From an uncultured Acidobacteriota bacterium (GTDB lineage Bacteria > Acidobacteriota > Thermoanaerobaculia > UBA5066 > DATFVB01), in assembly GCA_963813155.1 (NCBI GenBank), contig CAWEYG010000003.1, positions 832,001-896,000 of the forward strand: a stretch of DNA of 64,000 nt, written 5' to 3'. The first letter of the stretch is position 1. Each line of letters starts with the position of its first letter. The notes beneath the pieces are model-generated. The model made no database searches and was not told the DNA's origin. It was given only the letters and a program-made list of their open reading frames with translations. Position numbers and translations under genes: made by a program. Positions 11,907 through 63,278 of this stretch are shown piece after piece.

Positions 11907-11921
11907 GAGAGGGACAGGGAG

Positions 11922-12725: not shown

Positions 12726-12731
12726 CGGTCT

Positions 12732-13577: not shown

Positions 13578-13586
13578 CGTGGCCGG

Positions 13587-16588: not shown

Positions 16589-16589
16589 T

Positions 16590-18988: not shown

Positions 18989-19043
18989 AGGACGGCGCCC
19001 GCGAGCGCCAGGACCTCTGTCATCAGCGGGATTCTAGCCTGCC

Positions 19044-29251: not shown

Positions 29252-29392
29252 GCCCCATTCTCACACACCGGAAAACGCCAATCTGGCGCGGCGACGACGA
29301 ATGGGCGCGCGCGCAAACCGACTTTCCCAGCAAAATCTCTCTAGAATTCTGGCATTCCGGTTGCGTTTGTCCCGAGCCAGGGAGGAGTCCGC

Positions 29393-30388
29393 GTGGAAAA
29401 TTTGAACACCGTTCCGGCCGCCGAAGAGAGGCTCGAGGCGAGCCGCGACAAGATCGCCGGGCTTCGGCGCGCGGTTCACGTCGCGCTCGTGGGCCAGGAG
29501 CATTTCCTCGACCGGCTCCTCATCGGCCTTCTCGCCCGGGGCCATGTCCTCGTGGAGGGAGTCCCCGGTCTGGCGAAGACGCTCGCGATCCGGGCGCTCG
29601 CCGGCGGCGTGGACGCACGTTTTTCGCGGATTCAATTCACTCCCGATCTGCTGCCCGCCGACCTCACCGGCACGCTCATCTTTCACCCTGCCTCCGGCAC
29701 GTTCACCCCGAGGCTCGGCCCCGTGTTCGCGAACATCGTCCTCGCGGACGAGATCAACCGCGCGCCCGCGAAGGTCCAGTCCGCGCTGCTCGAGTCGATG
29801 CAGGAACGGCAGGTCACGATCGGCGACACGACGCATCCGCTCCCGGAGCCGTTCTTCGTTCTCGCGACCCAGAACCCGATTGAGCAGGAAGGGACCTACC
29901 CGCTGCCCGAAGCCCAGACGGACCGTTTCCTCCTCAAATGCGTCGTTCGCTACCCGTCGAAGGAAGAGGAGCTTCGGATCCTCGAGATCGCCTCTGCCGG
30001 GTTCCCTCCCCTCTCGCCGCCCGTGCTGTCGACCGGCGACCTCACGGACGCCGCCGGCGCCGTCGCCGGCCTGTACGCCGACCGGCGGATCCGCGAGTAC
30101 ATCGTCGCGCTCGCCGCGGCGACGCGCGCGCCACGCGAATCGGGGTTCCCGGAGGGTGCGCCCTGGATCGCCTACGGCGCCTCGCCCCGGGGGTCGATCG
30201 CGCTGCTCGCGGCGGCGCGCGGAAACGCCTTCCTCCAGGGGCGCTCGTTCGTGGTGCCCGAGGACGTCAAGGCGATCGCGCCCGACGCGCTCCGCCACCG
30301 GCTCGTGCTCACGTTCGAAGCGGAAGCCGAGGGCGTCCGGGCCGACGATGTGATCGAGCGGCTGCTCGGCAAGATTCCCGTCCCGTGA
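29393..30388 (+). CDS. moxR: MoxR-family AAA+ ATPase
   Basis: EGVPGLAKT, RIQFTPDLLP, DEINRAPAKVQSALLE and ATQNPIEQEGTY. Confidence 0.96.
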   Translation: MENLNTVPAAEERLEASRDKIAGLRRAVHVALVGQEHFLDRLLIGLLARGHVLVEGVPGLAKTLAIRALAGGVDARFSRIQFTPDLLPADLTGTLIFHPASGTFTPRLGPVFANIVLADEINRAPAKVQSALLESMQERQVTIGDTTHPLPEPFFVLATQNPIEQEGTYPLPEAQTDRFLLKCVVRYPSKEEELRILEIASAGFPPLSPPVLSTGDLTDAAGAVAGLYADRRIREYIVALAAATRAPRESGFPEGAPWIAYGASPRGSIALLAAARGNAFLQGRSFVVPEDVKAIAPDALRHRLVLTFEAEAEGVRADDVIERLLGKIPVP

Positions 30389-31320
30389 CGCTCTTTTCCC
30401 GGCTCACCCGGCCCCGGCGCCGGCGCCTGGGCCGCGCACTCTCGGCCGAGGAGCTCTTTCGTCGGGTCGGACGGATCGCCGTCGCCGCGCGCAGGAAATC
30501 GGTCTCGCAGACGTCCGGCGACTACCGCGCCGTTTTCCACGGGCGCGGAATGGAATTCTCGGAAGTCCGCGAGTACCGGCCCGGCGACGACGTGAGGTCG
30601 ATCGACTGGAACGTCACCGCCCGAGCCGGGACGCCGTTCGTAAAGCTCTTCCGGGAAGAGCGGGACCGCACCCTTCTTTTCCTCGTCGACCTGTCGGCTT
30701 CCGAGGACTTCGGCTCGACGCTCGCGACGAAACGCGACCTCGCGGCGGAGGCGACCGCGGCGATCGCCCTCTCGGCGGCGGAAAACCGCGACCGCGTGGG
30801 CGCGATCCTCTTCACGGACCGGGTCGAAAAGATCCGCCGCCCGGCGCGCGGAAAGCCCCACGCGCTCTCGGTCGTCCGCGACGTGCTCACGCGTCCGCTC
30901 GAGGGTTTCGGTACGGATCTCGCCCTGGGAATTCGGGCGGCGAGAAATCTCCTCAAATCGCGCGCGCTCGTCGTCCTCATTTCCGATTTTCGCGCGACGG
31001 GCTACGCGAACGAGCTCGGCGCCCTCGCGCGCCGGCACGACGCCGTCGCCCTCGCCGTCTCCGACCCGGCCGAGCGCCGCTTCCCGTCGCGGGGGCTGTT
31101 CCGATTCCGCGACGCGGAGACGGGAGAGACTCGCGTCGCGGACGCGTCTTCCGCGGAATTTCGAAACCGCTGGGGCGCCGACGCGGCCGTCGGAGCGCGG
31201 GGAATCTGCCTGCGCTCCGGCGTCGACTTTCTCGAGCTGTCCTCGGATCGCGCGCCGTCGGCGGACCTCGCTTCGTTTTTCCGATCCCGGTTCCTCGCCC
31301 GGACGGGAAGGGTCGGATGA
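30385..31320 (+). CDS. DUF58 domain protein
   Basis: GRGMEFSEVREYRPGDDVRSIDWNVTAR and LISDF; GTGA overlap with moxR. Confidence 0.92.
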   Translation: MTLFSRLTRPRRRRLGRALSAEELFRRVGRIAVAARRKSVSQTSGDYRAVFHGRGMEFSEVREYRPGDDVRSIDWNVTARAGTPFVKLFREERDRTLLFLVDLSASEDFGSTLATKRDLAAEATAAIALSAAENRDRVGAILFTDRVEKIRRPARGKPHALSVVRDVLTRPLEGFGTDLALGIRAARNLLKSRALVVLISDFRATGYANELGALARRHDAVALAVSDPAERRFPSRGLFRFRDAETGETRVADASSAEFRNRWGADAAVGARGICLRSGVDFLELSSDRAPSADLASFFRSRFLARTGRVG

Positions 31321-32150
31321 ACGGGACCGTCACGCTCTCTCCCCTGAAAGTCTCCGTCGGAGATCCGATCGAGGTGCGCGTCGCGTTCGACTGCCCGCCG
31401 TCCTCGAACGTTCTCGTCACGAACCCCGCTTCGTCCGGATCGCTCGAACGCCTCGCCGTCTCGCCGTGGAAATTCCGGCGAATGGGCGGACGGTGGCGCG
31501 TCGAACGGACCGAGCGCTGGGCGTCGTTCGCTCCGGGGACGTCGGCGAAGCTGCGCTACGGCATCCGGAGCGCGCCGGAAGGAGCGGTCGAGCTCGTCTC
31601 GCCGCCGATCGAAACGGTCTCCGTTCTTCCCCCGGGCAGCGGCGCGCCCCCCGTTTCGCCCCTGGCCGGGCCTCTCGAAAAGACGTACGTCCCGTGGGAG
31701 TGGGCGGCCGCGTTCGCGCTCGGCCTTCTGGTCGTGCTGCTGTTCGCGCGCTTCCTGCGGCGCAAGCGCGGAATGCGTTACTCGCCAAAATCGCCCGACG
31801 AGCAGTTCGAACAGGAGCTCGCGCTCCTCGATGAAAAGCTGTCCCGGGGCGAACCGGACGGGGAATTCTTCGACTGGCTGGCCGAGACGACGCGCTGGTA
31901 CCTCGAACAGAAGCTGAGGTTCCCGGCGCCGCGGCTGACCTCCTTCGAGATCTCGCGCGAGCTCGATCGGCAGCCGCAGACGATGCCGACGCGGGACGTC
32001 GCGGCTGTGTTCGCGGCGTGCGACGGTTATCGGTTCGCCCGGCGCGAAACCCGGCGGGAACAGGCGGCCGAATCGCTGGCGGCCGCGCGCCGCGCCGCGG
32101 CCGGGATCCGCCGATCGACCGAGCCGCCCCCGCAGGAATTGTCCGCATGA
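31317..32150 (+). CDS. Single-TM protein of the Bat operon
   Basis: One hydrophobic helix followed by RWYLE..LTSFEI; ATGA overlaps at both ends; sits between DUF58 and BatA. Confidence 0.7.
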   Translation: MNGTVTLSPLKVSVGDPIEVRVAFDCPPSSNVLVTNPASSGSLERLAVSPWKFRRMGGRWRVERTERWASFAPGTSAKLRYGIRSAPEGAVELVSPPIETVSVLPPGSGAPPVSPLAGPLEKTYVPWEWAAAFALGLLVVLLFARFLRRKRGMRYSPKSPDEQFEQELALLDEKLSRGEPDGEFFDWLAETTRWYLEQKLRFPAPRLTSFEISRELDRQPQTMPTRDVAAVFAACDGYRFARRETRREQAAESLAAARRAAAGIRRSTEPPPQELSA

Positions 32151-33154
32151 TCTCCTTTGCGCGGCCCTGGGCCTTCGCGATTCTCGTCGTCCCCGCCGCC
32201 GCGGTCTGGTGGCGGCACTGGCGGCGGCGATCCGGCCTCGAAGTCCTCGAGGTGCCCGATCTTCCACGCGTGCGCCGCTCTCTCGCCGGCTTCCTGTGGC
32301 CGGTTCCCTCCGTGCTCTCTTTTCTGGCCGTTGCCGCCGCGGCGGTCGCGCTCGCGGGGCCGCGCCGCTTCGAGCGTCGGCCGATCGATCCCGGCTGGGG
32401 GGCGAACATCGCGATCGCGCTGGACGTCTCGGGCTCGATGTCCGCCGAGGACTTTCAGCCGCGAAACCGCCTCGAGGTCGCGCGTTCGGTCGTCGCCGAT
32501 TTCATCCGCGGCCGAACGGCCGATTCGATCGCGCTTCTCGCGTTCGCGGGGGCGGCCCGGACGGTCTGCCCGTCGACGGACGACCGCGACACGCTGCTCG
32601 CTCTCCTCGCGCAAACGGACGGTTCGAAGCTCCCGGACGGCACGGCGATCGGAAACGCGATCGCGACGGCCGTGTCGAGGCTCAAGGACCTCCCCGGCAA
32701 GAGCAAGGTTCTCGTTCTCGTGACCGACGGAGGCAACAACTCGGGCCAGATCGATCCCGAGACCGCCGCCGGAATCGCGCGGGCCTACGGGATTCGCATC
32801 CACACGATCGCCGTCGGGCGGGGCGGCCGCGTCCCCATCACGCTGACGATGCGCGACCCGCTCACGGGAAAGTCGGTGAAGCGGCGAATCGAGGCGGACG
32901 TCGAGGTCGACGAGGAGCTCCTTCGGAAGATCTCCGCCGCGACGGGGGGAAGATCCTTCCGCGCAACCGACTCCGCGACACTCGCGTCGATCTTCCGGGA
33001 GATCGACGGCCTCGAGAAAACGCCCGTGCCGGCGAAATTCGAGATCGTCGCGCACGACCTGAGCGGCCTGCCCGCGAGAGCCGCGGGCGCGCTCCTGCTC
33101 GCGGCCCTGCTGCTGGCCGCAGGACCCCTCCGGGTCGAGACAGAGGCCGCGTGA
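32147..33154 (+). CDS. batA: BatA-like VWA domain protein
   Basis: N-terminal F..PW TM segment, MIDAS DVSGSM, GTAIG and VTDGGNNSG. Confidence 0.88.
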   Translation: MISFARPWAFAILVVPAAAVWWRHWRRRSGLEVLEVPDLPRVRRSLAGFLWPVPSVLSFLAVAAAAVALAGPRRFERRPIDPGWGANIAIALDVSGSMSAEDFQPRNRLEVARSVVADFIRGRTADSIALLAFAGAARTVCPSTDDRDTLLALLAQTDGSKLPDGTAIGNAIATAVSRLKDLPGKSKVLVLVTDGGNNSGQIDPETAAGIARAYGIRIHTIAVGRGGRVPITLTMRDPLTGKSVKRRIEADVEVDEELLRKISAATGGRSFRATDSATLASIFREIDGLEKTPVPAKFEIVAHDLSGLPARAAGALLLAALLLAAGPLRVETEAA

Positions 33155-33161
33155 GGCCCGC

Positions 33162-34106
33162 ATGAGGTGGGCCGAACCGGTCTGGCTCTGGGGCGTGCTC
33201 GGAGCCGCCGGCGTCGGAGTGCTGCTCCGCTCCGCGCAGCTTCGCGCGCTGCGGATGAGCCGGCGCATCGATCCGCGCTTCCGCGGCCGCGGGGCCTGGC
33301 GGGCCTGCGTGCTTCCGGCCGCGAGCCTCGCTCTCGTTTTCGCCGCGCTCGCCCGGCCGCAGTGGGGGTACCGGCGCGTCGCGTCGGCGACGGCGGAAAG
33401 CGATGCCGTGCTCGTCTTCGATACTTCCGGGTCGATGCTCACCCGTGACGTCGCGCCGGACCGGTTTTCGCGCGAAAAGCTCTTCGTCCGCGACCTCCTT
33501 CGCGACCTTCCCGACACGGTGCGCGTCGGCCTCGTCCGCGTCGAAGGGGAAGGTTCCGTCGTCTCCCCCCTCACGCTCGACCGCGATTCGCTGCGAAATT
33601 CGCTCGACGAGCTCGCTCCCCGCGGATCCGAGACCCCCGGCTCAGATCTCGGAAACGGCATCCGCAAGGCGACTGCTCTTCTTTCGGCGCGAGGGTCGCG
33701 CGCCCGCTCGATCGTTTTCCTCTCGGATGGAGAGGACCTCGACGACGGTCTCGATGCCGCGATTCGCGAGGCGCAGCGCCGGGGAATCGTCGTCGACACG
33801 GTCTGCTCCGGCACCCCCGGCGGGGGGCCCGTGCCCGCGCGGGGCGGAGGTTTTCTCTCGGAAGGAGGCGGCCCGGTCGTGTCGCACGCGCATCCGGAAA
33901 AGATGAGGGCGATCGCCGCGAGCTCGGGAGGCGCGTTCGTCACTCCCGACGACTCTCCGAAGATCTTCGCGGCGAAACTGCGAACCCCCGGACGCTCGGG
34001 GCGGGGATGGACGAACCGCGAGCCGGCGGAGCGCTCCCCGTGGGCGCTGGGTTTGGCGATCGTCGCGTGGGCGGCGTGCCAGCTGCCGGTCCGGGAGCGG
34101 TCGTGA
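33162..34106 (+). CDS. batB: BatB-like VWA domain protein
   Basis: ALARPQWG, DTSGSM...DVAPDR, PLTLD and SDGED. Confidence 0.85.
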   Translation: MRWAEPVWLWGVLGAAGVGVLLRSAQLRALRMSRRIDPRFRGRGAWRACVLPAASLALVFAALARPQWGYRRVASATAESDAVLVFDTSGSMLTRDVAPDRFSREKLFVRDLLRDLPDTVRVGLVRVEGEGSVVSPLTLDRDSLRNSLDELAPRGSETPGSDLGNGIRKATALLSARGSRARSIVFLSDGEDLDDGLDAAIREAQRRGIVVDTVCSGTPGGGPVPARGGGFLSEGGGPVVSHAHPEKMRAIAASSGGAFVTPDDSPKIFAAKLRTPGRSGRGWTNREPAERSPWALGLAIVAWAACQLPVRERS

Positions 34107-34720
34107 AAAAGGCGGCCGCGGCGCTCCTCGCCCTCGGGTCGATCTTCTCTCCCGCTCGCCGGGCCGCGAAGAAAGGCGTGGAGGATTTCCGCGCGAAACG
34201 CGTCGCGGAGGCCCAACGCGATTTTCGCGAGGCGGAGAGGCGCGAGCCGAACGAGCCGGCCTGGAACTTCAATCTCGGCACCGCGAACGCGGCCGCCGGG
34301 GATCACGCAGCGGCTCGGGCGGAGCTCGCGAAGGCGGCGCAGTCGAGCGATCCGGCCGTCGCCGCCAGAGCCCTCTACCAGATCGGCACACTCGACCTGC
34401 AGGAGGGCAACTACCCGGACGCGGCCAACGAGCTCCGCCGGAGCCTCGAGATCGTCCCCGGCGACGCCGACGCGAAGCGAAATTTCGAGATCGCCGCTCG
34501 CAATCGCGACCAGAAACCTCCCCCGCCGCCGAAAGGAGGCGGGGGAGGCAAAGAACCGCCGAAGGGCGAGAAGAAACCCGAGCATCGCCCGGACGACTCC
34601 GACTTCCGCCGAAAGGCCGGCATGACGCGGGCGGAAGCCGAAGCGATGCTGCGGAGCCTCGAAAACGAACAGAAACAGAAGGAACGGGTCTCGGCCCGGG
34701 AAGAGGGAAAAGACTGGTGA
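34103..34720 (+). CDS. batC: BatC-like TPR protein
   Basis: FNLGTA, ALYQIG, DAKRNFE, MTRAEAEAML and terminal KDW. Confidence 0.8.
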   Translation: MKKAAAALLALGSIFSPARRAAKKGVEDFRAKRVAEAQRDFREAERREPNEPAWNFNLGTANAAAGDHAAARAELAKAAQSSDPAVAARALYQIGTLDLQEGNYPDAANELRRSLEIVPGDADAKRNFEIAARNRDQKPPPPPKGGGGGKEPPKGEKKPEHRPDDSDFRRKAGMTRAEAEAMLRSLENEQKQKERVSAREEGKDW

Positions 34721-36288
34721 GGTGGGCGCGGGTTTCGGTTCTTGTCGCCGCCCTTCTGTGCTCGCGCGGCTCGATCGCGGCCGAGACGCCCTCCCTCTCG
34801 GCACGGCTCGAGCCGGACCGCCTTGCGGCCGGGGAAATGACGACCCTTCAGATCACGATCTCCGGCTCCGTCCGGCTCAAGAGCGCCCCCGATCTCGCGC
34901 TCCAGAATTTCCAGCTCATTGCCGGACCTTCGATCGAGAACCGGTTCGAGTGGATCAACGGAAGGAGCTCGAACCAGACGATCCTGATCTACCGCCTGCG
35001 CGCGTTGAAGCCGGGGTCTGCATCGGTCGGCCCGGTTCGCGTTTCCGGCGCGGCCGGCGAGACCCTCGAGGCGCCGCAGGCGACGGCTACCGTCGAGAAG
35101 CCCGGCGAACCGGCGGCCGAGGCGCGCCCCGGGCCGGTCTCCTCCGACCCCGCTCTCGTCGCGCGCCTCGATCCTTCCCGGCCGTACGCCGGGCAGCAGG
35201 CCGTCTGGACGCTTTATCTCGTCACGCGGGGCCGGGCCACGCAGGGAGAGATCAAGTCCCTTCCCGACTTCAAGGGATTCTGGGCGGAGGATCTCGACCG
35301 GGACCCGAATGTCATGCCCCAGGTCTGGAACATCGCGGGCGTGAGCTGGCACGCGTATCCGATGATCCGCAAGGCCCTCTTCGCGAACCGGCCGGGCGCG
35401 ATTTCCATCGGCGCCGCCCGCGCGCTGATCGCGGTCCGTTCCGATTTCTTCGATCTGTTCGGCGATTCGCCGTTTTCGGAATCCCGGCCGGTCGAGAAGG
35501 AAGCGGCGCCGGTCGCGACGGCCTTCCGTCCGCTGCCCGAGAGCGGCGATCGCCTGCCGGTCGGAAGCTTCACCCTGAAGAGCTCGTTGGACCGGAGGGA
35601 TGTCGCGCCGGGAGGATCCTTTTCCGTGACCGCCTCGCTGTCAGGCGACGGGCGCCTGGCGGACGTGGCGGCGCCCGGCCTCTCGATCGCGGGCGCGAAG
35701 ATCTCCGAACCGGAGTCGCGGCTCTCCATTCGCAGGAGCTCGCAGCGGCTGTCGTCGACGCGAAGCTGGCAGTGGGTCGTCACGCCGGAGAAACCGGGCA
35801 TCCTGACCGTGCCGGCCTTTCGAATCTCGACCTTCAACCCCGTCACGGGAAGCGTGGCGGAGGTCGCTTCCCCGTCGATGGACGTTCGCGCCGCCGGACC
35901 GCTCGCGCCCGAGACGCCCGCCGCTCCGATCCTCCCTTCGCCGCCCGCCCACAGCGCGTTTCCGGCGCCCGCCGTCCTCGTCCCGGGTCTCGCGGCCGCC
36001 GCCCTGCTGCTCGTCGCGGCGGGTTATCGGCTCGGCCGGGCGCGAAATTCCGGCCCCGGACCGGAACGGCCGGAGGGGACTCCGGAGGAGAGAATCGCGT
36101 CGCTGCTCGCGGCCCTCGCGGCGAAGGCGAGCCGGCGGGGGGGAACGGCCCCGGGCGAAATCGCGCGCCTGCGCGACGAGCTCGCGCGGATCGCCTACTC
36201 GCCGCAGCTGTCCTCGCGGGAGGAAGCTCTCGAGGAACTCGAGACGGAGACTCTCCAGCTGGCAAGACGCTGGAAGGTCCGAATATAG
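34717..36288 (+). CDS. batD: BatD-like exported protein
   Basis: Signal peptide, WINGR, PYAGQQ, PDFKGFW, PVGSF and a C-terminal TM helix. Confidence 0.8.
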   Translation: MRWARVSVLVAALLCSRGSIAAETPSLSARLEPDRLAAGEMTTLQITISGSVRLKSAPDLALQNFQLIAGPSIENRFEWINGRSSNQTILIYRLRALKPGSASVGPVRVSGAAGETLEAPQATATVEKPGEPAAEARPGPVSSDPALVARLDPSRPYAGQQAVWTLYLVTRGRATQGEIKSLPDFKGFWAEDLDRDPNVMPQVWNIAGVSWHAYPMIRKALFANRPGAISIGAARALIAVRSDFFDLFGDSPFSESRPVEKEAAPVATAFRPLPESGDRLPVGSFTLKSSLDRRDVAPGGSFSVTASLSGDGRLADVAAPGLSIAGAKISEPESRLSIRRSSQRLSSTRSWQWVVTPEKPGILTVPAFRISTFNPVTGSVAEVASPSMDVRAAGPLAPETPAAPILPSPPAHSAFPAPAVLVPGLAAAALLLVAAGYRLGRARNSGPGPERPEGTPEERIASLLAALAAKASRRGGTAPGEIARLRDELARIAYSPQLSSREEALEELETETLQLARRWKVRI

Positions 36289-38901: not shown

Positions 38902-39516
38902 GTGCTCGCATCCGCCTCGCCGCGCCGGGCGGAGATCCTTTCTTCGCTCGGAATCGCGTTTCGTGTCCTCGTGTCCCGACGCAGCGAAACCCTTCGCCGG
39001 GGCGAGGACGCTCCGTCGGCCGTCCGACGCCTCGCGCGGGAGAAAGGACAGCAGGTGTTCGCGAACGCGGGCGGGCGCGCCGTCCTCGCCGCCGACACGC
39101 TCGTCTACCGCGGCACGAACATCTTCGGGAAGCCGGCCGGCCGCGCGAGAGCGGCCGCCATGCTCGAAGAGCTCTCGGGGAAGACCCACTACGTCGCGAC
39201 CGGCGTCTGCCTCATCACCCCCGACCGGCTCATGGAACGCACGGCCGTTTCCCAGGTCCGCTTCGCCCCGCTGTCGCCGGCCGAAATCGCCTGGTACGTC
39301 TCGACCGAGGAGCCGCTCGACAAGGCCGGAGGGTACGCGGTCCAGGGCCTCGGCGCGAGGTTCATCCAGGAGATCCGGGGCTCCTACAGCAACGTCGTCG
39401 GCCTTCCGGCCCGCGAGGTCTACGAGATGCTTCTCGAAGCGGGACTCGGGCCGCTCGCGATGCCGGCGCGTCTCCCCGACCCCGCGCCGAAGGGCGCGCG
39501 CCGGCCGAAGCGGTGA
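38902..39516 (+). CDS. maf: Maf-family nucleoside triphosphate pyrophosphatase
   Basis: LASASPRR, LAADT, GKP, DKAGGYAVQG and NVVGLP. Confidence 0.94.
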   Translation: MLASASPRRAEILSSLGIAFRVLVSRRSETLRRGEDAPSAVRRLAREKGQQVFANAGGRAVLAADTLVYRGTNIFGKPAGRARAAAMLEELSGKTHYVATGVCLITPDRLMERTAVSQVRFAPLSPAEIAWYVSTEEPLDKAGGYAVQGLGARFIQEIRGSYSNVVGLPAREVYEMLLEAGLGPLAMPARLPDPAPKGARRPKR

Positions 39517-40019
39517 TTCCGATCGTCTTCGCCCCGACGATCTCCGCGGCAAAGCGGGCCGGGCGCGGCCGGAGAGAATTTCTCCCCGCCTCGCCGAAGA
39601 GCGACGGCGCGCTCGACCGGGCCCTCTCGGAAGGCCTGCCCGTTCGGTTCTGCGCCCCGAAGTCGGCTTCGAAATTCTGGAAGCTCGTCCGCCGACGCTA
39701 CCGGCTTCCCGCGCCCCCGCCGGTCCTGCGGGATGCCATCGGCGGCATCGCCCGCCACAGCGCCGCGGACGGAACGTCCCGGAATCTGCCCGGCAGGCCG
39801 CCCGGCGGTCGGTTGCAGGCTCTCTGGATCGAGGGGTCGCTCTCCGATTCCCGGGCGCGGGCGCTGCTTCGGGAGACGGGCGAGATCCGGCTCTGGGTGA
39901 TCGAAGACTTTCGCCAATTGCGCGTTTCCGACGCTCTCCTTTCCCGGGCGGAGCGAGCCGGAATCCGCATCGCCGCGATCCGACCGCTTCGCGCTTCGGT
40001 GTTAAGATTCCGGGCATGA
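39513..40019 (+). CDS. Hypothetical protein
   Basis: 168-aa ORF with 4-nt start/stop overlaps to both neighbours; no recognisable family. Confidence 0.6.
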   Translation: MIPIVFAPTISAAKRAGRGRREFLPASPKSDGALDRALSEGLPVRFCAPKSASKFWKLVRRRYRLPAPPPVLRDAIGGIARHSAADGTSRNLPGRPPGGRLQALWIEGSLSDSRARALLRETGEIRLWVIEDFRQLRVSDALLSRAERAGIRIAAIRPLRASVLRFRA

Positions 40020-41353
40020 AACGCATTCTTTCCGCGGTCGTCCTCGCCGCTTGCTCGGTTTCCTCGCTCCGAGCGGCCGCGCCGAAGACGGAACCGCTCC
40101 CCTTCCTCCAGGACGACTACCCGCAGGCGCTGTCCCGCGCGCGGGCCAAGAAGCTTCCGATCTTCGCGGAGGCCTGGGCCCCCTGGTGACACACCTGCCG
40201 CTCGATGAGGGCTTTCGTCTTCACCGATGAATCCCTCTCGAAGCGCGCCGGACAGTTCGTCTGGCTTTCGGTCAACACGGAGCTCGCGAAAAACACCGGG
40301 TTCCTCAAGAAGTACACGGTTCAGGCCTACCCTTCCTTTTTCGTGATCAGCCCGGAGACGGAGACGGTCGCGTATCGCTGGATGGGCGGAGCGACCGTCG
40401 CGCAGCTGCAGAAAATCCTCGACGACGGCCGGCGGGCGGTTCGTCCCGGCCGCGGGGATTTCGAGACGGCGCTCGCCCGCGCGGACCGGCTCTACGGCGC
40501 CGGGAAGAACGCCGAGGCCGCGGACTCGTACCGCCGCGCTCTCTCGCTCGCCCCGAAGGGGTGGGATCGCTACGGGCGGACCGTGGAATCGCTTTTGTTC
40601 GCGCTGGACAGCACGCACGACGCCGAGGGGTGCGCTCGCGCCGCGTTCGAGGCCTATCCGAAACTCTCCCGCTCGGCGTCGCTCGCGAACGTCGCGGCCG
40701 CGGGGCTCGGATGCGCTCTCGAGCTCCCGGCCGAAAAGCCCGGGCGCGCGCAGCTCGTGGCCTCGCTCGAGAAGGCGACGCTCGAGTCGATGGCGAACCC
40801 GCGTCTCGTCATGTCCGCCGACGACCGGTCGAGCCTCTACCAGGTCCTCATCGACGCCCGCGAAGACGCGAAAGACGAGGCCGGCCAGCGCAAGACGACG
40901 GAAGAGTGGTCCGCGTTCCTCGACGCCGAGGCGGCTCGCGCGAAGACCGTGGAGCAGAGATCCTCGCTCGATCCCCACCGGCTCCTCGCCTATCTCGCGC
41001 TGAAGACTCCGGAGAAGGCCGTGCCGATGCTCGAAGCGTCGGAGCGCGACCTGCCCCAGGACTACAACCCGCCGGCCCGGCTCGCGCTCGCATACAAGAA
41101 CATGGGGAAATTCGACGATGCGCTCGCCGCCTCCGACCGGGCGTTGTCGAAGGCCTACGGGCCCCGAAAGGTCGGCATCCTGAGGACCCGCGCGGACATT
41201 TACCAGGCCATGGGCAAGCCCGAGATGGCGGCATCGACCCTCGAAGACGCGATCGGATACTCGGAAAAGCTGCCGGACGAGCAGAAGTCCGACGCGCAGA
41301 TCGCGTCCCTCCGAAAAAAGCTCGCCGAAGTGCGCAACCCGGCCAAACCGTGA
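40016..41353 (+). CDS. Exported thioredoxin-fold/TPR protein; probable selenoprotein (U-H-T-C, TGA at 40187-40189)
   Basis: Signal peptide MKRILSAVVLAACSVSSLRA, then DDYPQALSRARAKKLPIFAEAWAPW-[TGA]-HTCRSM in frame with ORF 40205..41353, cis-Pro loop AYPSFF and TPR-like helices. Confidence 0.8.
40199..40245 (+). promoter_or_regulatory. Candidate bacterial SECIS hairpin
   Basis: Starts 9 nt after the TGA: CGC-TCGA-t-GAGGG-ct-TTCGTC-[TTCACC]-GATGAA-t-CCCTC-TCGA-a-GCG. Confidence 0.55.
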
Positions 41354-51471: not shown

Positions 51472-52879
51472 CTATTCGCGGAAGTGCCGGATGCTATTGG
51501 CGTAGTAGTTCAGGACCGGGAGCTCGGACGTGCGCGCCCGAAACAGGCCTTCGCGCTCGTCCACCAGGTGCCGAAGGGTCAGCGCGCGAAGCCCGACGGC
51601 GATCGCGTAGTCCTGATCCTTTCGCGGAACGTAGACGTGGGCGCCGCGCGACTCCAGCTCCTTCGCGAGCTCGTAGACGCGGCCCTTGATCTCGAGCTCG
51701 CCGAACTCGCGATCCGGCCACTCGGCGAAAACAGTCGCGACGAGCGAGACCGGCAGCACGGGAATGACGCGGCCGAGCGCCTTCATCAAAGCGTCCGCGA
51801 ACTCGCCGACGCGGCGAAACCTCTCCTCCCGCGGCAATCGGCCGAAATCGAGGTTCTCCCGCGCCGCGTAACCCTTCAGCGAGATCGGCGCTCCGAAGTT
51901 GACGCAGGCATACCCGAATCGGTGCCAGCGATTTCGGGCGAGGAGCGCGAGGTTTCGAACGACGAAGAACGCGGCCGTGCGAAGAGCCGCCGCCCGGCCC
52001 CTCCGGGGCTCATCGGAGAGCTCGCGCAGGAGGGTGCGGTCCTCCAGCGTCCGGTCGTAGTTGATGCCGACCGGGATGAAGACGAGATCCCGCGGCGTTT
52101 CCGGGTCGAAGCGACTTCAGCATGTAGTCGAGAAGGCCGAGCTTCGGGCGCTGCAGGCGCCCGTCGCGGGACAGGCCTCCCTCCGGAAACAGGGCCTGCG
52201 TCACGCCGGCGGCCGTCGCCATCGCGACGTACCGCTCGAGCACCCGGCGGTAGAGCGGATTCTTCGAGTTTCGCCGCACGAAATACGCCCCCATCGCGCG
52301 GACGAGCGTCTGCAGCGGCCAGATCCTCGCCCATTCGCCGACCGCGTACGACAGCGCGGCCTTCTCCGCCGCCAGGTAGGCGACGAGCACGTAGTCCATG
52401 TTGCTCCGGTGGTTGATCACGAAAACGACGGTCGCGTCGGGGGGAATGGCGGAAAGCGCCTCGTCGTCCGAAGTGCCGAGCCTCACACGGTAGAGAGCGC
52501 GCGCAAAGCGCCGCGCCAGCGAATAGCCGACTCGAAAATAGATGTAGGCGTTGAATGCCGGGACGATCTCCCGCGAGTAGCGTCGGACGCGGTCCATCGC
52601 GACGGCGCGCGGCATCTGCTCGTCCCGCGCGAAGTCATCGGCCGCCTCCAGGACTTTCGGGTCGTACTGGAGACGGTCGATGAGGACCTGCCGTTTCGTC
52701 AGCTTGAACGGCTGGATCCGGATGTGGAGACGGGTGTTGAGCTCTTCGAGCACGCGGTTGACGCGGCGACGAAGGAACCACCGGACGCTCGGGAAGAAGA
52801 TCCGGTCGAGCGCGGCCCACAGCGCGAGCGCGAGCACGACGAGCGCGGCCCACAGCGGAAGCGTCACCGATCGAGGCAT
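51472..52879 (-). CDS. Glycerol-3-phosphate acyltransferase (PlsB-like); apparent frameshift near 52110
   Basis: INHRSNMDY and FPEGGLSRDG; continues IPVGINYDR...VNFGAP...YYANSI in another frame. Confidence 0.82.
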
Positions 52880-52927
52880 GGAGTTTCCCGCCAAGCATAC
52901 GCCGTCAAACGCGATGACCTGCGGCGA

Positions 52928-53101
52928 GGGAGGTGGTCGCGAGAGAGGGAATCGGCTGTTTGAGGCGCCGTCTCGTGCGCCGACCCAAGGTGGAGGCTCG
53001 ATGACTTCCAATCACGAAGCCAGGTCAGCCTCCCCTGTTCACACTGCAGCGGTCGGCGCAAGGCGACGAGTTCCGATTCCCGAACGAGCGAGCCACCTCC
53101 C
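52928..53101. repeat. Long imperfect intergenic hairpin, copy A
   Basis: Nested pairs GGGAGGTGG/CCACCTCCC, GGGAATCGG/CCGATTCCC, TGCGCCGACC/GGTCGGCGCA and GGAGGCT/AGCCTCC. Confidence 0.8.
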
Positions 53102-53730: not shown

Positions 53731-56016
53731 TCACCCCGATTCCTCCCGTTGCACGGGCGAGGCGGGCAAACGGCCGAGAACCGGCAGGCCCCCCGCACCG
53801 ACGCGCCCGAAGCTCAAAACGCCGGTCGGGCACATCTGAACGCACGCGGAGCAAGCCACGCACTCGGGGTCCTCCATCGGCGCACCCTTGTTCGCGAAGC
53901 TCATCACGTCGATCCCCTGGTGACAAACGGACGTGCAGACATTGCAGGAGATGCACTTCGACTTCTCCGGAAAGATCCGGAATTTCGAAAAGCGCGCGTA
54001 CACGTGCATCAGCGCCGCGAGCGGGCAGGCGAACCGGCACCAGACGCGGCCCGAGAACCAGAAGTAGAGACCCACCCCCAGGATCCCCGCGAGGAAGATG
54101 TCCACGGACCAGGAATAGTTCAAAAAAGGGATTCCCTCGAAGAGAGCGTGGAACACGCGCGCCGGCCGCGATCCGGGGCCCTCCGCCCACCCCGCGATCC
54201 GGAACCCCAGGACAAGGACGGCGAATCCGAGGACCGCCTGGCCCGCCATGTTGACGCGGTTCCACAGCGGGCCGTGCGGCATCTTCTGGCGGTGCGCGTC
54301 CCCGAGAGTCTCCGCCAGGGCTCCGCACGAGCAGATCCAGCCGCAGTACGCGCCTTTTCCCCAGCGGCGGATCAGCAGCGGGAGGATTACACAGGTCTGG
54401 ACGAAGCAGATCGCGAGCCACAGCCACATCGGGCGATCGGTGAACACGTTGTAGACGTTCAGGGGGAAGGCGAGGACGAATCCGTAGGACCGCCAGTAGG
54501 CGCGCTCGCGCCCGATCGCGTCGTAGCGCTCGAAGAGATGGTCGGCGAGCCACTGGGCCGCCCCGCCGTGCGAAAAGAAGCCGTTCCGGCCCATCCATGG
54601 GAGAAGGATCTCCGGAAGGAGGAACAGCGGCAGGCACTGAATCGCGATCAACGTCAGCGTCTGGAGCGTGACGTACGGCGTCTTCCGACGGCGGATTCGG
54701 CGGACGCCGAAAATGGCCACGAGCGCGCAGTAGACGAGCGTGTAATAGAACGCCGGATTGCCGAGCCCGCGCCGGACCGTGAAGAGCAGGTTCGTCTCGC
54801 GATTCGACCAGTCGGCGATCTTCCCGCCCGCCGCATCGATCGCAGCGGGAACTCCGTAAGGAAACGCGCTCCGCGCCTCGGCCCAGCTCTGGATGGGAAC
54901 CTCCGGATGGCGGCTCTTCCAGTTGAAGAGCACGGTGCACAGGATCAGGAACGCCGCGAGGCCGGCGTACGCCGCGACTCCAAGCTCTCCCCGGATGCGA
55001 ATGCCGGACCGGCGGAAGAAGTCCAGCGGCGCCTCGCGCCCGATCATCGAAAACACGATATCGTTTGGAAGCCGTTGCTCCTTGCCCCCGGCGCTCCTCA
55101 GGACGACCTCCGCGGGCTCGATCCGCAAAAGCTCGCTGCCCATCTCGACGCGGAGAGAGGCCGGCGACCCGTCCCGCTCGCGTTGCCGAATCCCGTGGAG
55201 GTTTTCCGCTTTGGGCCGCGAGAACGACGTTCGCCGGTACGACAGGATCACGCGCGCGCCGGCGTCCGCGAGCGCGATCGCGGTCTCGAGGGCCGCGTCG
55301 CCGCCCCCGACGACGAGCGCGTCCTGCCCGGCGAAATCCTTCGGGTCGTGGAGCCGGTCGTACACCTTGCCCGAGCTCTCGCCGGGAACGTTCAGCTTCC
55401 GATGGCCGCCGCTGCGGCCGATCGCGACGATGACCCGGCGCGCGGTCGATGTGCTCCCGCCGGCATGGTGCAGGACCAGGAGATCCCCCTTCCGTTCGAT
55501 CCGTTCGATCCGCGCCGGCGTCACCTCGATCCCCGCCGATCGGCGGAATCCCTCCAGACTCTCGAGAAGCTCCTCCTTGGGATGGACTTCCGATTCGAAC
55601 TGCAGGTCTCCCGCGGGCGTCATTCCGCGCGGATACGTGTAGATCGGCTTTCCCTTCGGAAAATTCTCGACGGTCGAGAAGGCGTCGGCGGCTTCGAACA
55701 CTCGAAAGCGCAGCCCCGCCTTCTTCGCTTCGATCGCCGCTGCGATGCCGGAGACCCCCGCGCCGATGATCGCGAGGTCGTCGCCCGTGGCTCCCTCCCC
55801 GGCGGACTGGAAACCCGGCTCGTCCAGAATCGCCTTCACCGCGCGCGCACCGCTGTCGGAAGCGAACTTCAGCAGAGGGATCCCCGTCAGGTCGCCGACG
55901 ATCCGAACGCCCGGGATTGCCGTCGTTCCGTCGGCGCGGACCTCGGGGAGCGGCTCGACCGTCCCCGCCGGCCACCGCGTGTGGAGCCAATCGGCATATT
56001 TCCGAAAAACGTTCAC
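53731..56016 (-). CDS. FAD/NAD(P)H oxidoreductase (TrxB-like) fused to a membrane 4Fe-4S (NapH/FixG-like) domain
   Basis: IIGAGVSG and VVGGGDAALE; TM helices with YCGWICSCG and WCRFACP; two CxxCxxCxxxC ferredoxin motifs. Confidence 0.85.
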   Translation of the reverse strand: MNVFRKYADWLHTRWPAGTVEPLPEVRADGTTAIPGVRIVGDLTGIPLLKFASDSGARAVKAILDEPGFQSAGEGATGDDLAIIGAGVSGIAAAIEAKKAGLRFRVFEAADAFSTVENFPKGKPIYTYPRGMTPAGDLQFESEVHPKEELLESLEGFRRSAGIEVTPARIERIERKGDLLVLHHAGGSTSTARRVIVAIGRSGGHRKLNVPGESSGKVYDRLHDPKDFAGQDALVVGGGDAALETAIALADAGARVILSYRRTSFSRPKAENLHGIRQRERDGSPASLRVEMGSELLRIEPAEVVLRSAGGKEQRLPNDIVFSMIGREAPLDFFRRSGIRIRGELGVAAYAGLAAFLILCTVLFNWKSRHPEVPIQSWAEARSAFPYGVPAAIDAAGGKIADWSNRETNLLFTVRRGLGNPAFYYTLVYCALVAIFGVRRIRRRKTPYVTLQTLTLIAIQCLPLFLLPEILLPWMGRNGFFSHGGAAQWLADHLFERYDAIGRERAYWRSYGFVLAFPLNVYNVFTDRPMWLWLAICFVQTCVILPLLIRRWGKGAYCGWICSCGALAETLGDAHRQKMPHGPLWNRVNMAGQAVLGFAVLVLGFRIAGWAEGPGSRPARVFHALFEGIPFLNYSWSVDIFLAGILGVGLYFWFSGRVWCRFACPLAALMHVYARFSKFRIFPEKSKCISCNVCTSVCHQGIDVMSFANKGAPMEDPECVACSACVQMCPTGVLSFGRVGAGGLPVLGRLPASPVQREESG

Positions 56017-56067
56017 GACGGCTTCTCCCTCGCGATTTGCGCCTCGCTAGTTTACGCTCGCAGGCTC

Positions 56068-56676
56068 ATGAACGACTTCTCGATGACGCCCCGCGAGGCG
56101 AGGTTCCTGCGGAGCCTCGACCCGGCCTGGAAGATCCAGAAATATCTCGACGGCATCGATTACGACGTCCGAGGAGCCCACTGTCGCTCTCCCCGACGGG
56201 TGCTGCGGGAAAAAACGGCCCAGTGCATGGACGGGGCCCTGTTCGCGGCGGCCGCTCTTCGCCTGCAGGGCCGCCCGCCGCTCATCCTCGATCTCGAAGC
56301 CGAGCGGGACGACGACCATGTCCTGGCGGTGTTCCGGGAACGCGGATGCTGGGGGGCGATCGGCCGTTCGAACTACTCCGGGCTCCGTTTTCGCGAACCG
56401 ATCCATCGAACTCTCCGCGAGCTCGTCCTGTCCTACTTCGAGTCGTATTTCAATCTCCGGCGCGAAAAGACGCTGCGGCGATACGCTCGCCGCCCGGTCG
56501 ATCTTTCGCGGTTCGACGGTCGAAACTGGATGACCTCGGAAGAAGACCTGTGGTTCATTCCGCACTACCTCGAAGAGATCGCGCACGTGAGGCTCCTGAC
56601 GCCTTCGCAGGAGCGGCGGCTCGGGCGCGTCGACGCGAGGATGTTCGCCGCGGGAAAAGTCGGGCGGGAAGAGTAG
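56068..56676 (+). CDS. Conserved hypothetical protein (transglutaminase-like Cys-His)
   Basis: KIQKYLD..Y, CRSPRRV, AQCMDGALFAAAAL, DDDHVLA, WGAIGRSN and LRELVLSYF. Confidence 0.7.
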   Translation: MNDFSMTPREARFLRSLDPAWKIQKYLDGIDYDVRGAHCRSPRRVLREKTAQCMDGALFAAAALRLQGRPPLILDLEAERDDDHVLAVFRERGCWGAIGRSNYSGLRFREPIHRTLRELVLSYFESYFNLRREKTLRRYARRPVDLSRFDGRNWMTSEEDLWFIPHYLEEIAHVRLLTPSQERRLGRVDARMFAAGKVGREE

Positions 56677-56700
56677 GACATTGCTCAACCGGAGCCACTC

Positions 56701-56722
56701 GTCATCCCCGCGAACGCGGGGA
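56701..56722. repeat. REP-like hairpin element, left arm (split by IS30)
   Basis: GTCATCCCCGCGAACGCGGGGA is an internal palindrome and is inverted relative to 57784-57811. Confidence 0.85.
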
Positions 56723-57712
56723 GGTGGATTCACATTTGAAGTGCAACAGATGAGAGAAGACCTCGGCCGGGGTTTGGAAGTCAAGGCATTTCCTAGGTGT
56801 GTGATTGTAGAGTTGGGCAAGGCGGAGGATTTGGCTCGTGGGAAGGACTGCCAGGTCGGTTTTTCGGGGGAGGAAGCGACGAAGCCGGCCGATGGCATTT
56901 TCGACTCCGCCCTTCTGCCAAGGAGACCGTGGATCGCAAAAGAATGTTTCGACTCCGAGGGTTTTCCCCAGGCGGTGATGGAAAGCGAACTCGGTTCCGT
57001 TGTCGAAGGTCACGGTGCGGCGCAGGGACGGGGGAAGAGGTCGCAGAAGATTTTCGATGGTAGAGACAAGAGGTGCGGCGGCCTTGCTTTGTTGACGCAG
57101 GATAACCGTCAGTCGAGAAGTACGTTCGTGAAGGGCCAAGACGGCCTGCCCATAGGTGGCAAAGAGCATGAGATCGGCCTCCCAATGGCCAGGGTTGGTT
57201 CGGTCACTGGCTTCTGGGGGTCGCAGAGCAATGGGGACACGGTCTTGGATGTGCACGGTCGAGTTGCCGTGTTTTGGGGAGCGTCGGCCGCGCTTGCTCT
57301 TGCCGCGGGGGAGGTAGAGCCGCCAGGAGTAATCCTTGGTGCGAGCGATCTGAGCGGCGATGAAGCGATAAATGGTTTCATGACTGACAACCGGCCGGCC
57401 TTCTTCGCGCGCGAGCCTGCCGGCGACCTCCTGCGGCGACCATCCCTGACTGAGGCGGTCCAAGACCAGAGCCTGGAGGTCGGGCCGACGCAACAGTTTG
57501 CTGCCGGTCCAGCGCCGTGCCTTGGCCTGTTGACCGGCGTAAACGGGCTGATACCCGCCCGACGTCGTGCAGTTGCGCTTCAGCTCCCGAGCAACGCTCG
57601 ATGGCGCGCGATCCAGACCTGCCGCGATTTGCCGGATCGATTGCCCGGCGCAGCGACGCCGGGCAATCTCACACCGTTCCTGGATCCCAAGCTGCCCGTA
57701 TTGGCGCCCCAT
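56702..57712 (-). CDS. IS30-family DDE transposase
   Basis: HTH SIRQIAAGLDRAPSSVARELKRN, WSPQEVA, SHETIY, GHWEAD, TFDNGTEF and PWQKGGVEN. Confidence 0.95.
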   Translation of the reverse strand: MGRQYGQLGIQERCEIARRRCAGQSIRQIAAGLDRAPSSVARELKRNCTTSGGYQPVYAGQQAKARRWTGSKLLRRPDLQALVLDRLSQGWSPQEVAGRLAREEGRPVVSHETIYRFIAAQIARTKDYSWRLYLPRGKSKRGRRSPKHGNSTVHIQDRVPIALRPPEASDRTNPGHWEADLMLFATYGQAVLALHERTSRLTVILRQQSKAAAPLVSTIENLLRPLPPSLRRTVTFDNGTEFAFHHRLGKTLGVETFFCDPRSPWQKGGVENAIGRLRRFLPRKTDLAVLPTSQILRLAQLYNHTPRKCLDFQTPAEVFSHLLHFKCESTSPRSRG

Positions 57713-57759
57713 CGCAGCACCCCCATCAGAAGGTGTTGCACTTCGTTTGTGAAATCAAA
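56723..57759 (-). mobile_element. IS30-family insertion sequence, 1037 bp, with 26-bp imperfect terminal IRs and 3-bp target duplication GGA
   Basis: IRs GGTGGATTCACATTTGAAGTGCAACA (56723-56748) and TGTTGCACTTCGTTTGTGAAATCAAA (57734-57759); GGA at 56720-56722 and 57760-57762. Confidence 0.92.
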
Positions 57760-57811
57760 GGATCGCTCCGTGGTGCCCGCCCCGAGCGATTCCCGCTTGC
57801 GCGGGAATGAC
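57760..57811. repeat. REP-like hairpin element, spacer and right arm
   Basis: GGATCGCTC-15 nt-GAGCGATTCCCGCTTGCGCGGGAATGAC; contains ATTCCC-N8-GGGAAT. Confidence 0.85.
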
Positions 57812-57842
57812 CTATTCGTCCACGTGCTCACGCCTCACTTGC

Positions 57843-59786: not shown

Positions 59787-59795
59787 GGATGCCGC

Positions 59796-60380
59796 TCAGG
59801 CGCCCGTCAGGTCCTTGAGAAGCTCCGACACGGTTTCGGGAGACAACTCCGCCTCCCCGCGATTTTCGCCGTGGGAAAGCACGAGCCGGGCCCGGCCGGC
59901 GCCGGCGAGCGCCGAAGAGCCTTCGGGTCCCAGCGGAAAGCGGATGTAATGCACAGCCGAGATCTTATCTTCCCGCCCGTGACCTTCCTCGAAATTCGCG
60001 AAATACCTGCGGCCGCCGATCTCCATCCAGAGGCTCCTGCCTTCGTCCAGCCCGATGAACGAGTCGAGAATCGGCTTCACCCGGGCTTCCTCGGTCACCT
60101 CGACGAACAGCGTCGCGGCGACCTCGCCCGGTTCCGGCAGGAGCGAATTGTAGACGTCGATCTCCTCCTGAATCTTCGCGGGCTCGACGATCCGCTCGGC
60201 CCGAAGCATCTCCTGGATCTGGAAGAGGACCGTGTCGCGGTTCTCGAAAACGAGCGTCACGAGCGGGCCCACCGAAACCCGGCGGAGAGCCTTCTTCTCG
60301 ATCACCCGGCGGCGAAACTCGGGCCGGGCGAGCTCGTATTCGTGGAGATTTTGCAACGACGTGATCGAGATCTTCTGCAT
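59796..60380 (-). CDS. DUF3501 family protein
   Basis: FENRDTVLFQIQEMLRAE, EIDVYNSLLP and KISAVHYIRF; downstream of rubrerythrin and FeS oxidoreductase. Confidence 0.88.
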   Translation of the reverse strand: MQKISITSLQNLHEYELARPEFRRRVIEKKALRRVSVGPLVTLVFENRDTVLFQIQEMLRAERIVEPAKIQEEIDVYNSLLPEPGEVAATLFVEVTEEARVKPILDSFIGLDEGRSLWMEIGGRRYFANFEEGHGREDKISAVHYIRFPLGPEGSSALAGAGRARLVLSHGENRGEAELSPETVSELLKDLTGA

Positions 60381-60381
60381 C

Positions 60382-61659: not shown

Positions 61660-61728
61660 GGGTGATTCCTCGCCTCGCGAGGGCGGCTGTCGCGAGCGAG
61701 CGGTCCACTCGGAAGGGGCGCGGAATCG

Positions 61729-61901
61729 CCGGCTGCGGGCGGCAACTGCTCGCAACGAGGGAATCGGCCCTTGTCTGGCTCGCTGTTCTCCGACTCGAAA
61801 CGAGGTTCCAGGAGCTCCGGGAACGCGGCCGAGCGGGAGCACAGCGATGCCGCGAGTTGCGATTCCCGAGCTGAGCGACTAGCCGCACGACGCGCCGCCG
61901 G
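61729..61901. repeat. Long imperfect intergenic hairpin, copy B
   Basis: Nested pairs GCGGC/GCCGC, GGGAATCG/CGATTCCC, TCGCTGTTCTCC/GGAGCACAGCGA and GTTCC/GGAAC around a central GGAGCTCC; end motifs shared with copy A. Confidence 0.75.
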
Positions 61902-61911
61902 TTCACCGAGT

Positions 61912-62336
61912 TCACGATTCCCGAGCGTGTCGAGCCCCTTCTGGAATCGTCCCGCGTGGGATTTTTCGGCTCGCGCGAGCGTCTCGAACCACTCGGCGAC
62001 CTCGGTGAACCCCTCTTCGCGGGCGGTCTTCGCGAAGCCCGGGTACATCTGCGTGTACTCGTACGTCTCCCCTTCGACGGCCGATTTCAGGTTCAATTTC
62101 GTGTCCCCGATCGGAAAATTCGTCGCCGGGTCTCCGACCTCCTTCAGGAAGTCAAGATGGCCGAACGCGTGGCCGGTTTCCGCCTCCGACGTGTCGCGAA
62201 AGAGCCCTCCGACGTCGGGGAATCCTTCGATGTCCGCTCGCCGCGCGAAGTACAGATAGCGGCGGTTCGCCTGCGACTCTCCGGCAAAGGCGTGCTTCAG
62301 GTTTTCGTGGGTCTTGGTGTTGACGAGTTTCGGCAT
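61912..62336 (-). CDS. rbr: Short-chain rubrerythrin (no rubredoxin domain); as sequenced the frame stays open to 61656
   Basis: [31 protein letters not shown] and AEKSHA; a TGA at 61912-61914 is one base out of frame just after the domain end. Confidence 0.9.
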
Positions 62337-62361
62337 TTTTCTTCTCCTTCTCGAAAAGCGG

Positions 62362-62775: not shown

Positions 62776-62815
62776 ATCAGTAACTATTACTATTAATAAT
62801 CCACCCGATTGTCAA
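62776..62815 (-). promoter_or_regulatory. Promoter region with -35 TTGACA and a Fur/PerR-box-like palindrome
   Basis: TTGACA at 62815-62810 on the minus strand; AT-rich island with AGTAA-N3-TTACT at 62779-62791, just before the ATG. Confidence 0.7.
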
Positions 62816-63240: not shown

Positions 63241-63278
63241 TGCCGGAGTCTAACCGCGCTTTGATAAGCTTCGCTGCC

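Follow-up and report, generated by a model that had tools for sequence, protein, structure and literature searches.

Gene and reading frame

The window analysed here is a 64,000-nucleotide stretch of DNA from an uncultured Acidobacteriota bacterium (contig CAWEYG010000003.1), and on its plus strand, at 40016..41353, it very probably carries a single gene for an exported thiol/selenol-disulfide oxidoreductase consisting of a signal peptide, a Thioredoxin_7-type domain with selenocysteine (Sec) at residue 58 and a tetratricopeptide repeat (TPR) solenoid, with UGA codon 58 being recoded through an element of two hairpins, H1 and H2. From the ATG at 40016 to the TGA stop at 41351-41353 runs one open frame of 445 codons, Sec58 included, whose sole internal stop is the TGA at 40187-40189, codon 58, in the context ...FAEAWAPW-TGA-HTCRSM. 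Full-length cysteine (Cys) homologues of 433-474 aa align with the product end to end, and in 56 of them the first Cys of WCHTC aligns with the Sec codon (40187..40189), which opens the redox motif U-H-T-C (U58, C61; 40187..40198). A mechanical list of open reading frames (ORFs) breaks the gene into 38963..40189 and 40205..41353, the latter being the shortened ORF of gene callers, 382 aa long and beginning at Met64, to which the database protein P0001 is 100% identical over 382 aa. An earlier note, made from this DNA alone, had claimed that the ORF caller splits one gene here and that the TGA falls on the first Cys of a thioredoxin W-C-x-x-C motif; the frame bears out the former, while the latter agrees with the 56 homologues just mentioned and with seven of the 80 related loci described below. 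TGA has not been reassigned in the window, as it ends 33 of the 40 Pfam-supported ORFs there, including this one, and a search of the window for in-frame TGAs flanked on either side by coding signal returned only TGA58 and the gene's own stop.

Sec and Cys forms in related genomes

A search of a 5.8-billion-protein set, in which 8000 candidates were scored and 3075 matched, was evaluated for its best 120 matches. These comprised 63 proteins that start exactly at the Met six codons past the TGA (MRAFVFTD...), 56 full-length proteins carrying both a signal peptide and the motif W-A-P-W-C-H-T/S-C, and 1 fragment, and Cys occupied the Sec column in every one of the 56 full-length homologues. In a library of representatives at 50% identity, 497 proteins matched at E <= 1e-30; the best 150 of these included 84 with WCxxC, at least 39 starting at Met64 and 27 of other kinds, 7 of which also visibly begin at Met64. 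Database names of the homologues were 'tetratricopeptide repeat protein' or 'thiol reductase thioredoxin', and because neither U nor X residues were present in any of the 270 database proteins retrieved, no source annotates the Sec form as a selenoprotein. The mis-annotation suspected in the earlier note is thus seen both in the split ORF list and in the 63 matches that begin at Met64.

To obtain the corresponding DNA, an alignment of the window protein with 41 of the 120 best matches (42 rows) served as query against one genome per species, by which 580 stretches were confirmed and the best 80 kept. All 80 loci belong to Acidobacteriota, with 45 titled Thermoanaerobaculia and 1 Holophagales, and over the part after the TGA their proteins are 51-72% identical to that of the window. 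Where the earlier note had recommended looking for homologues with Cys or TGA at this column, the codon proved to be TGA in 73 loci, TGC in 6 and TGT in 1, the window itself also having TGA. Recurrence of the same codon in 73 of 80 loci is more than chance, and the Sec reading of TGA58 is supported by this conserved Sec/Cys column. Coding conservation is not confined to the downstream side: the N-terminal 50-63 residues upstream of the TGA are conserved and in frame, and in the Sec forms they consist of a signal peptide followed by (V/L)LPFIxDDY...P(I/V)F(V/A)EAWAPW.

These data bear directly on the question of whether TGA58 is a sequencing or assembly error, or the mark of a pseudogene. Frame disruptions do occur elsewhere, for instance in a split acyltransferase at 51475-53011 of the window and in two of the TGA loci (L002 and L014), in which the frame after the TGA has 123 and 687 codons as compared to about 380 in the others and, for L002, the upstream frame is scrambled; these two probably represent assembly indels or decayed copies. 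The same TGA is nonetheless found in 73 of 80 independent species assemblies, which shows that it is not a sequencing error, both flanks are conserved at the protein level and the TGA is accompanied by an RNA element, and the probability left to an error or a pseudogene is negligible. The earlier note had argued that a chance substitution was improbable as the other apparent errors were indels; that argument is weak, and it is not needed, since conservation across 73 of 80 species settles the matter.

A further explanation would be that the locus yields two real products, one ending at UGA58 and the other a separate cytoplasmic TPR protein of 382 aa starting at Met64. Met64 is invariant in the 42-row alignment and is the start chosen by gene callers, and termination at the UGA is to be expected under selenium shortage. 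Met64 is, however, equally invariant in the Cys forms, where no restart is needed, and a break at this point would divide the thioredoxin fold within the active site and leave the rest of the protein with no signal peptide, so that we consider two products most improbable. The family is instead a genuine and widespread Sec/Cys family, which is consistently recorded, wrongly, as a truncated TPR protein, and since all 270 database proteins are either Cys forms or headless "tetratricopeptide repeat protein" entries, its active site, signal peptide and selenium dependence are invisible to annotation-based studies. Acidobacteriota are among the commonest soil bacteria, and the Sec form, present in 73 of 80 species genomes, has been kept in most of the related soil and sediment Acidobacteriota.

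Two hairpins downstream of the UGA codon

The RNA following the UGA was analysed in a gap-free alignment of the window with all 73 TGA loci, spanning the TGA with 12 nt ahead of it and 96 nt behind. In the window (plus strand), H1 at 40197..40246 is a long, imperfect hairpin with its apical loop, UUCACC, beginning 30 nt past the UGA, and H2 at 40247..40265, a candidate SelB-binding hairpin of the selenocysteine insertion sequence (SECIS) type, has a 7-bp stem, GCCGGAC/GUCUGGC, and the loop AGUUC at 40254-40258; it begins 57 nt past the UGA, with its loop at 64 nt. The two hairpins abut, and the 89-nt element of the window folds at -37.9 kcal/mol (z -4.12), with 0 of 200 shuffles as stable. An RNAalifold consensus of the alignment contained one substantial hairpin, namely H2 (columns 73-79 pairing with 85-91, loop R-G-U-U-Y). 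When scored on the specified structure, 99.8% of cells in H2 are paired, with five of the seven pairs invariant and A-U replaced by G-U in 10 rows, and in H1 81-97% of cells are paired per helix. Pair 36/60 of H1, in which both bases are third positions, is GC in 41 rows, CG in 12, GU in 5, AU in 2 and of other composition in 12. The covariation score on the specified structure was reached by 0 of 500 shuffles, a control that kinship among the sequences can inflate.

Two further pairings were set aside. A small helix around the UGA in the RNAalifold output (columns 3-5/23-25 and 10-11/16-17) is uninformative because it is made of the invariant Trp, Sec and His codons, and the UGAC/GUCA helix that closes the fold of the window is not conserved in the alignment. 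Rfam gave no match over the whole window at gathering thresholds, and only two chance matches to long non-coding RNAs in E-value mode over 40150-40320.

Selection at synonymous sites was assessed in 72 Sec rows and 7 Cys rows, from which L002 and L014 had been dropped for their abnormal frame length. In the Sec forms Ala78 is encoded by GCC in all 71 rows that have Ala, whereas the third position carries at least 0.93 bits in 27 other conserved Ala columns; at Gly79, 62 rows have GGA, 10 have GGG and none has GGC, although GGC accounts for 50% of Gly codons in these genes and is the majority codon at all seven other conserved Gly columns; GTC encodes Val82 in 72 of 72 rows, and the loop G (column 81) is invariant. 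Each of these synonymously frozen bases, at Ala78, Gly79, Val82 and the loop G, is the base that H2 requires. In the seven Cys forms Ala78 is GCC in 3 and GCG in 4, the residues at position 79 are R, G, D, G, G, G and S, and Val82 is GTG in 3 and GTC in 4. Pairing follows the same division, the Sec forms keeping on average 13.1 of 15 H1 pairs and 6.99 of 7 H2 pairs as compared to 8.6 of 15 and 4.86 of 7 in the Cys forms. Minimum free energy (MFE) folds of the 93 nt from the UGA contain H2 in 74 of 74 Sec and 0 of 7 Cys sequences, and H1 in 51 of 74 Sec and 1 of 7 Cys sequences. A two-hairpin element is therefore carried by the Sec forms and is absent from most Cys forms, and both hairpins are under selection that is specific to the Sec form.

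Fit to the bacterial SECIS model

In the published model, a bacterial SECIS has an upper stem of 4-16 bp, a loop of 3-9 nt with G followed by G/U within its first two positions, an MFE of at most -7.5 kcal/mol and a UGA-to-loop distance of 16-37 nt (PMC13188914). H2 agrees with the stem, loop and energy rules, having 7 bp, a 5-nt R-G-U-U-Y loop and -12.0 kcal/mol when folded alone, and it resembles the canonical element (bSECISearch model, PMC13188914) in stem, energy and a loop G-U at positions 2-3; it differs in that the canonical loop lies at 16-37 nt, whereas a Sec-specific hairpin of 50 nt stands between the UGA and H2. UGA58 is very probably recoded as Sec by a coding-sequence mRNA element in which H1 (40197-40246) is directly followed by H2 (40247-40265). 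A conceivable arrangement would have SelB binding to H2, with its G-U loop, and H1 acting as a folded spacer that would bring H2 to the mRNA entrance of the ribosome while the UGA is in the A site. With H1 closed, the separation of UGA and H2 amounts to about 7 nt before H1 plus 0-2 nt after it, which is close to the spacing of roughly 11 nt in the minimal fdhF element of E. coli. An engineered precedent, a SECIS placed in a 3' untranslated region in E. coli, was reportedly described by Su, Li and Gladyshev in 2005. Judged from sequence, the assignment of SelB binding to H2 and of a spacer role to H1 is evenly poised between acceptance and doubt. The broader proposition, that the gene provides a natural distance-bridged bacterial SECIS together with a widespread exported seleno-chaperedoxin of soil Acidobacteriota, is put forward tentatively, our own belief falling slightly short of an even chance. 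Were it true, SECIS-based selenoprotein finders would miss this class, as it lies outside their search model of 16-37 nt, and the RNA element, which is the most interesting part of the locus, presents a concrete and testable exception to the spacing rule.

A number of observations weigh against this reading of the gene. H2 fails the spacing rule, with its loop 64 nt from the UGA, and H1 has the right spacing (30 nt), yet lacks a G in the first two loop positions, so that neither hairpin conforms to all four published rules. The near-invariance of the H2 stem means that it offers no compensatory double changes, and the contrast set consists of only seven Cys-form DNAs. Genes for selA, selB, selD and tRNA-Sec were not found in the 64-kb window, for which 115 of 343 ORFs, chosen by the GC content of third positions, were subjected to Pfam analysis and in which ARAGORN detected no tRNA. 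In 60 of the 80 loci the surroundings of the gene likewise showed no Sec machinery, ARAGORN yielding only three tRNA-Ala there, and a conserved redox partner gene was not seen near the target in the 80 loci.

The misfit of H2 gives room for another division of roles, in which H1 alone is the SECIS and H2 serves ribosome pausing, mRNA stability or stacking on H1. The position of the H1 loop suits the 16-37 nt rule, some bacterial SECIS elements break the loop rule, and a subset of bacterial selenoprotein genes does not fit the model at all (PMC13188914); H1 is, moreover, Sec-form specific in the pairs that it keeps and shows some double changes. Set against this are its loop UUCAC-N, in which the expected G is missing, its presence in the MFE fold of 51 of 74 Sec sequences as compared to 74 of 74 for H2, and the fact that the strongest synonymous constraint, the loop G included, resides in H2. 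A SECIS formed by H1 alone is accordingly possible, albeit on the doubtful side.

That no Sec machinery was seen in these stretches also bears on whether UGA58 might be read through as Trp, Cys or Gly without any Sec system, for which UGA-C, a leaky context in E. coli, would be suitable. Such read-through is at odds with the use of TGA as a stop by most Pfam-supported ORFs of the window and by this very gene, with the Cys found in this column of all 56 full-length homologues, and with the conserved hairpin bearing a SECIS-type G-U loop that accompanies the TGA, and it is regarded as very unlikely. Insertion of Sec, the reading that we prefer, is also compatible with the host phylum. Acidobacteriota are known to use Sec, three selenoprotein families being listed for Acidobacteria (table 2 of PMC1794560) and one Acidobacteriota genome with 3 selenoprotein genes in deep-Sep (PMC12013277).

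Switching between Sec and Cys

A FastTree tree, which is a quick tree subject to a long-branch warning, was built from 134 rows, comprising 79 loci or window and 55 non-identical full-length Cys proteins, using the region after Met64 only. It needs 16 Sec/Cys changes, at least 9 of which are forced by well-supported branches, and shuffles had a mean of 44.6. The simplest reading of these sequences is that the Sec form arose once, followed by repeated reversion to Cys; a single origin is favoured by the H2 sequence that all Sec forms have in common. One pair of close kin differs at the Sec column, TGC in L072:6091 and TGA in L066:4863. L072 keeps 13 of 15 H1 pairs and 7 of 7 H2 pairs, making it the only Cys locus with both hairpins retained, and it looks like a recent change from Sec to Cys in which the RNA element has not yet decayed. 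The family thus constitutes a well-sampled natural case of repeated Sec/Cys switching.

Protein architecture and possible function

The first 21 or so residues (40016..40078, plus strand) form a probable signal peptide, with MKR, a hydrophobic stretch and an Ala-rich site (RA/AA), as read from the sequence; the N-termini of homologues are equivalent to that of the window, and residues 1-18 are disordered in the structure model with a predicted local distance difference test (pLDDT) value below 50. From these features it would appear that the protein is exported. The thioredoxin-fold domain, residues 32-135 (40109..40420), was identified by Pfam, by a PDB profile search and in the model. Thioredoxin_7 (PF13899) matched residues 32-113 with 33.7 bits (cut-off 27) and Thioredoxin (PF00085) residues 45-135 with 28.5 bits (cut-off 23.5), PF13098 remaining below its cut-off (25.2 versus 27). 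In the PDB profile search the putative disulphide isomerase 2kuc_A came first, at 4.7e-17, and DsbD C-terminal domains came next, at about 1e-7. The cis-Pro is Pro106 (40331..40333), within AYPSF at residues 104-108, and is invariant in the 42-row alignment. A TPR-type alpha-solenoid of about 300 residues occupies approximately residues 148-440 (40457..41335) according to Pfam, in which TPR_14, TPR_8, TPR_1 and TPR_2 exceeded their cut-offs, the model and Foldseek.

The AlphaFold model, made from the same protein alignment, has a pLDDT of 94.0 and a predicted template modelling score of 0.89, and shows a beta-alpha-beta thioredoxin-type fold, in which U58-H-T-C61 precedes the helix 59-68, followed by 17 helices with pLDDT above 90. 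The signal peptide, the thioredoxin fold with its cis-Pro loop AYPSF, and the TPR region were all anticipated in the earlier note, and each was recovered here. The top Foldseek matches in the PDB were TPR superhelices (LGN, OGT and CTPR); beyond generic TPR proteins and the distant YbbN, that search contributed nothing.

By analogy with thioredoxin-TPR chaperedoxins, the protein may reside in the periplasm and act as a reductase or isomerase on clients bound to the TPR part, the solenoid most likely holding a protein or peptide. In a cycle drawn from thioredoxin-fold chemistry and from that same analogy, the U58 selenolate would attack an oxidised sulfur species, a disulfide or some other, on a client in the TPR groove, C61 would then resolve the selenenylsulfide, and a reductant would recycle the protein. 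A membrane partner of the DsbD/CcdA type was not seen beside the target gene. Within the TPR part, Cys206 (40631-40633) and Cys233 (40712-40714) are conserved in at least 90% of the 42 rows and may serve as a structural disulfide or as a second redox pair.

Relation to known systems

The family is a new addition to the UxxC thioredoxin-fold selenoproteins, and its thioredoxin-TPR architecture is new to the selenoprotein list. A 2026 review tabulates 119 selenoprotein families, including a UxxC thioredoxin, a PF13098 thiol:disulfide interchange protein and a CxxU Trx7/PDZ protein; a thioredoxin-TPR family is absent among the 119, and neither 'TPR' nor 'tetratricopeptide' occurs in its text (PMC13188914). 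UxxC thioredoxin-fold selenoproteins (PF00085, PF13098; PMC13188914) likewise have Sec in place of the N-terminal Cys of CxxC, many Cys homologues and, as here, the SECIS within the coding sequence, to which the target adds a signal peptide, the solenoid of about 300 residues and a constrained hairpin 64 nt from the UGA. The Trx7/PDZ selenoprotein (NF041199, PMC13188914) is comparable in that a Thioredoxin_7-type domain is fused to a protein-binding module, but it combines CxxU with PDZ where the target combines UxxC with TPR, and the NF041199 model did not match the target at E <= 0.01. NCBIfam release 20.0 contained no family-specific or selenoprotein 'exception' model for it, TsoB and DsbD being far below their cut-offs.

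For the redox domain, the best sequence match is to DsbD C-terminal domain and Thioredoxin_7 proteins (PF13899, 2kuc_A), which are exported thioredoxin-like domains that, unlike the target, have neither a TPR domain nor Sec. The order of domains, an N-terminal thioredoxin and then a C-terminal TPR part, is that of the chaperedoxin CnoX/YbbN (E. coli 3qou, Salmonella 3qdn), from which the target differs in a TPR part about twice as long, a signal peptide and Sec. CnoX is cytoplasmic, and that of E. coli is without the first Cys. YbbN/CnoX structures 3qdn and 3qou took Foldseek ranks 4 and 14 with a global TM-score of only 0.20-0.31, no YbbN chain occurred among the 60 listed of 156 PDB sequence matches, and in one database source a homologue goes under the name 'thioredoxin-like negative regulator of GroEL'.

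A full-text search, with supplements, databases and subscription journals outside its scope, found no paper on Thermoanaerobaculia and selenocysteine; among the matches listed for 'Thermoanaerobacul' with 'seleno', none dealt with selenoproteins to go by title and opening of the abstract. 'Acidobacteri' does not occur in the text of PMC5029168, and the text of the BSepDB paper (PMC13326102) contains no relevant term besides one 'MAG'.

Gene neighbourhood

Immediately upstream on the plus strand, the ORF 39513..40019 has no assigned function, no Pfam match and counterparts in L001-L003 only; its stop overlaps the start codon of the target gene as ATGA (40016-40019), which suggests translational coupling of the two. 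The window neighbours of the target recur in only three of the 80 loci, the commonest real neighbour being an amidohydrolase (20 of 80). In the loci there are 25 other in-frame TGA sites with coding signal on both sides, four of which were inspected. A recurring '...PMYH*(Y/*)...' site on the plus strand, about 1-3 kb downstream of the target (L026, L028, L035, L043, L045-L047, L050, L053, L056 and L061), was considered as a second selenoprotein and rejected, as it is the antisense shadow of repeated Ig-like-domain (PF19081) genes on the minus strand; the remaining sites were taken to be ordinary stops from peptide context alone.

Elsewhere in the window, 51475-53011 on the minus strand holds an acyltransferase ORF at 52013-53011 (PF01553) and a GPAT_C ORF at 51475-52116, which overlap by about 100 nt in different frames; the pair looks like one PlsB-like gene split by a frameshift, and may be one of the indels mentioned in the earlier note. 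A redox and oxidative-stress cluster at 53734-63249 (minus strand), in which the search for in-frame TGAs flanked on either side by coding signal returned nothing, encodes an HdrA-like flavoprotein with Fe-S domains, DUF3501, a CCG-domain Fe-S protein, rubrerythrin, a Fur-family regulator and UPF0047. On the plus strand at 29345-36288, a MoxR AAA_3 ATPase, DUF58, two VWA proteins and BatD stand in a row, resembling a Bat/aerotolerance-type operon. Positions 1-19033 are taken up by a large polysaccharide-synthesis cluster with several GT2/GT4 glycosyltransferases, a DegT aminotransferase, an ABC-2 exporter pair and a UDP-GlcNAc 2-epimerase, the GC content of which, at 0.62-0.64, is below the 0.65-0.70 of the rest of the window.

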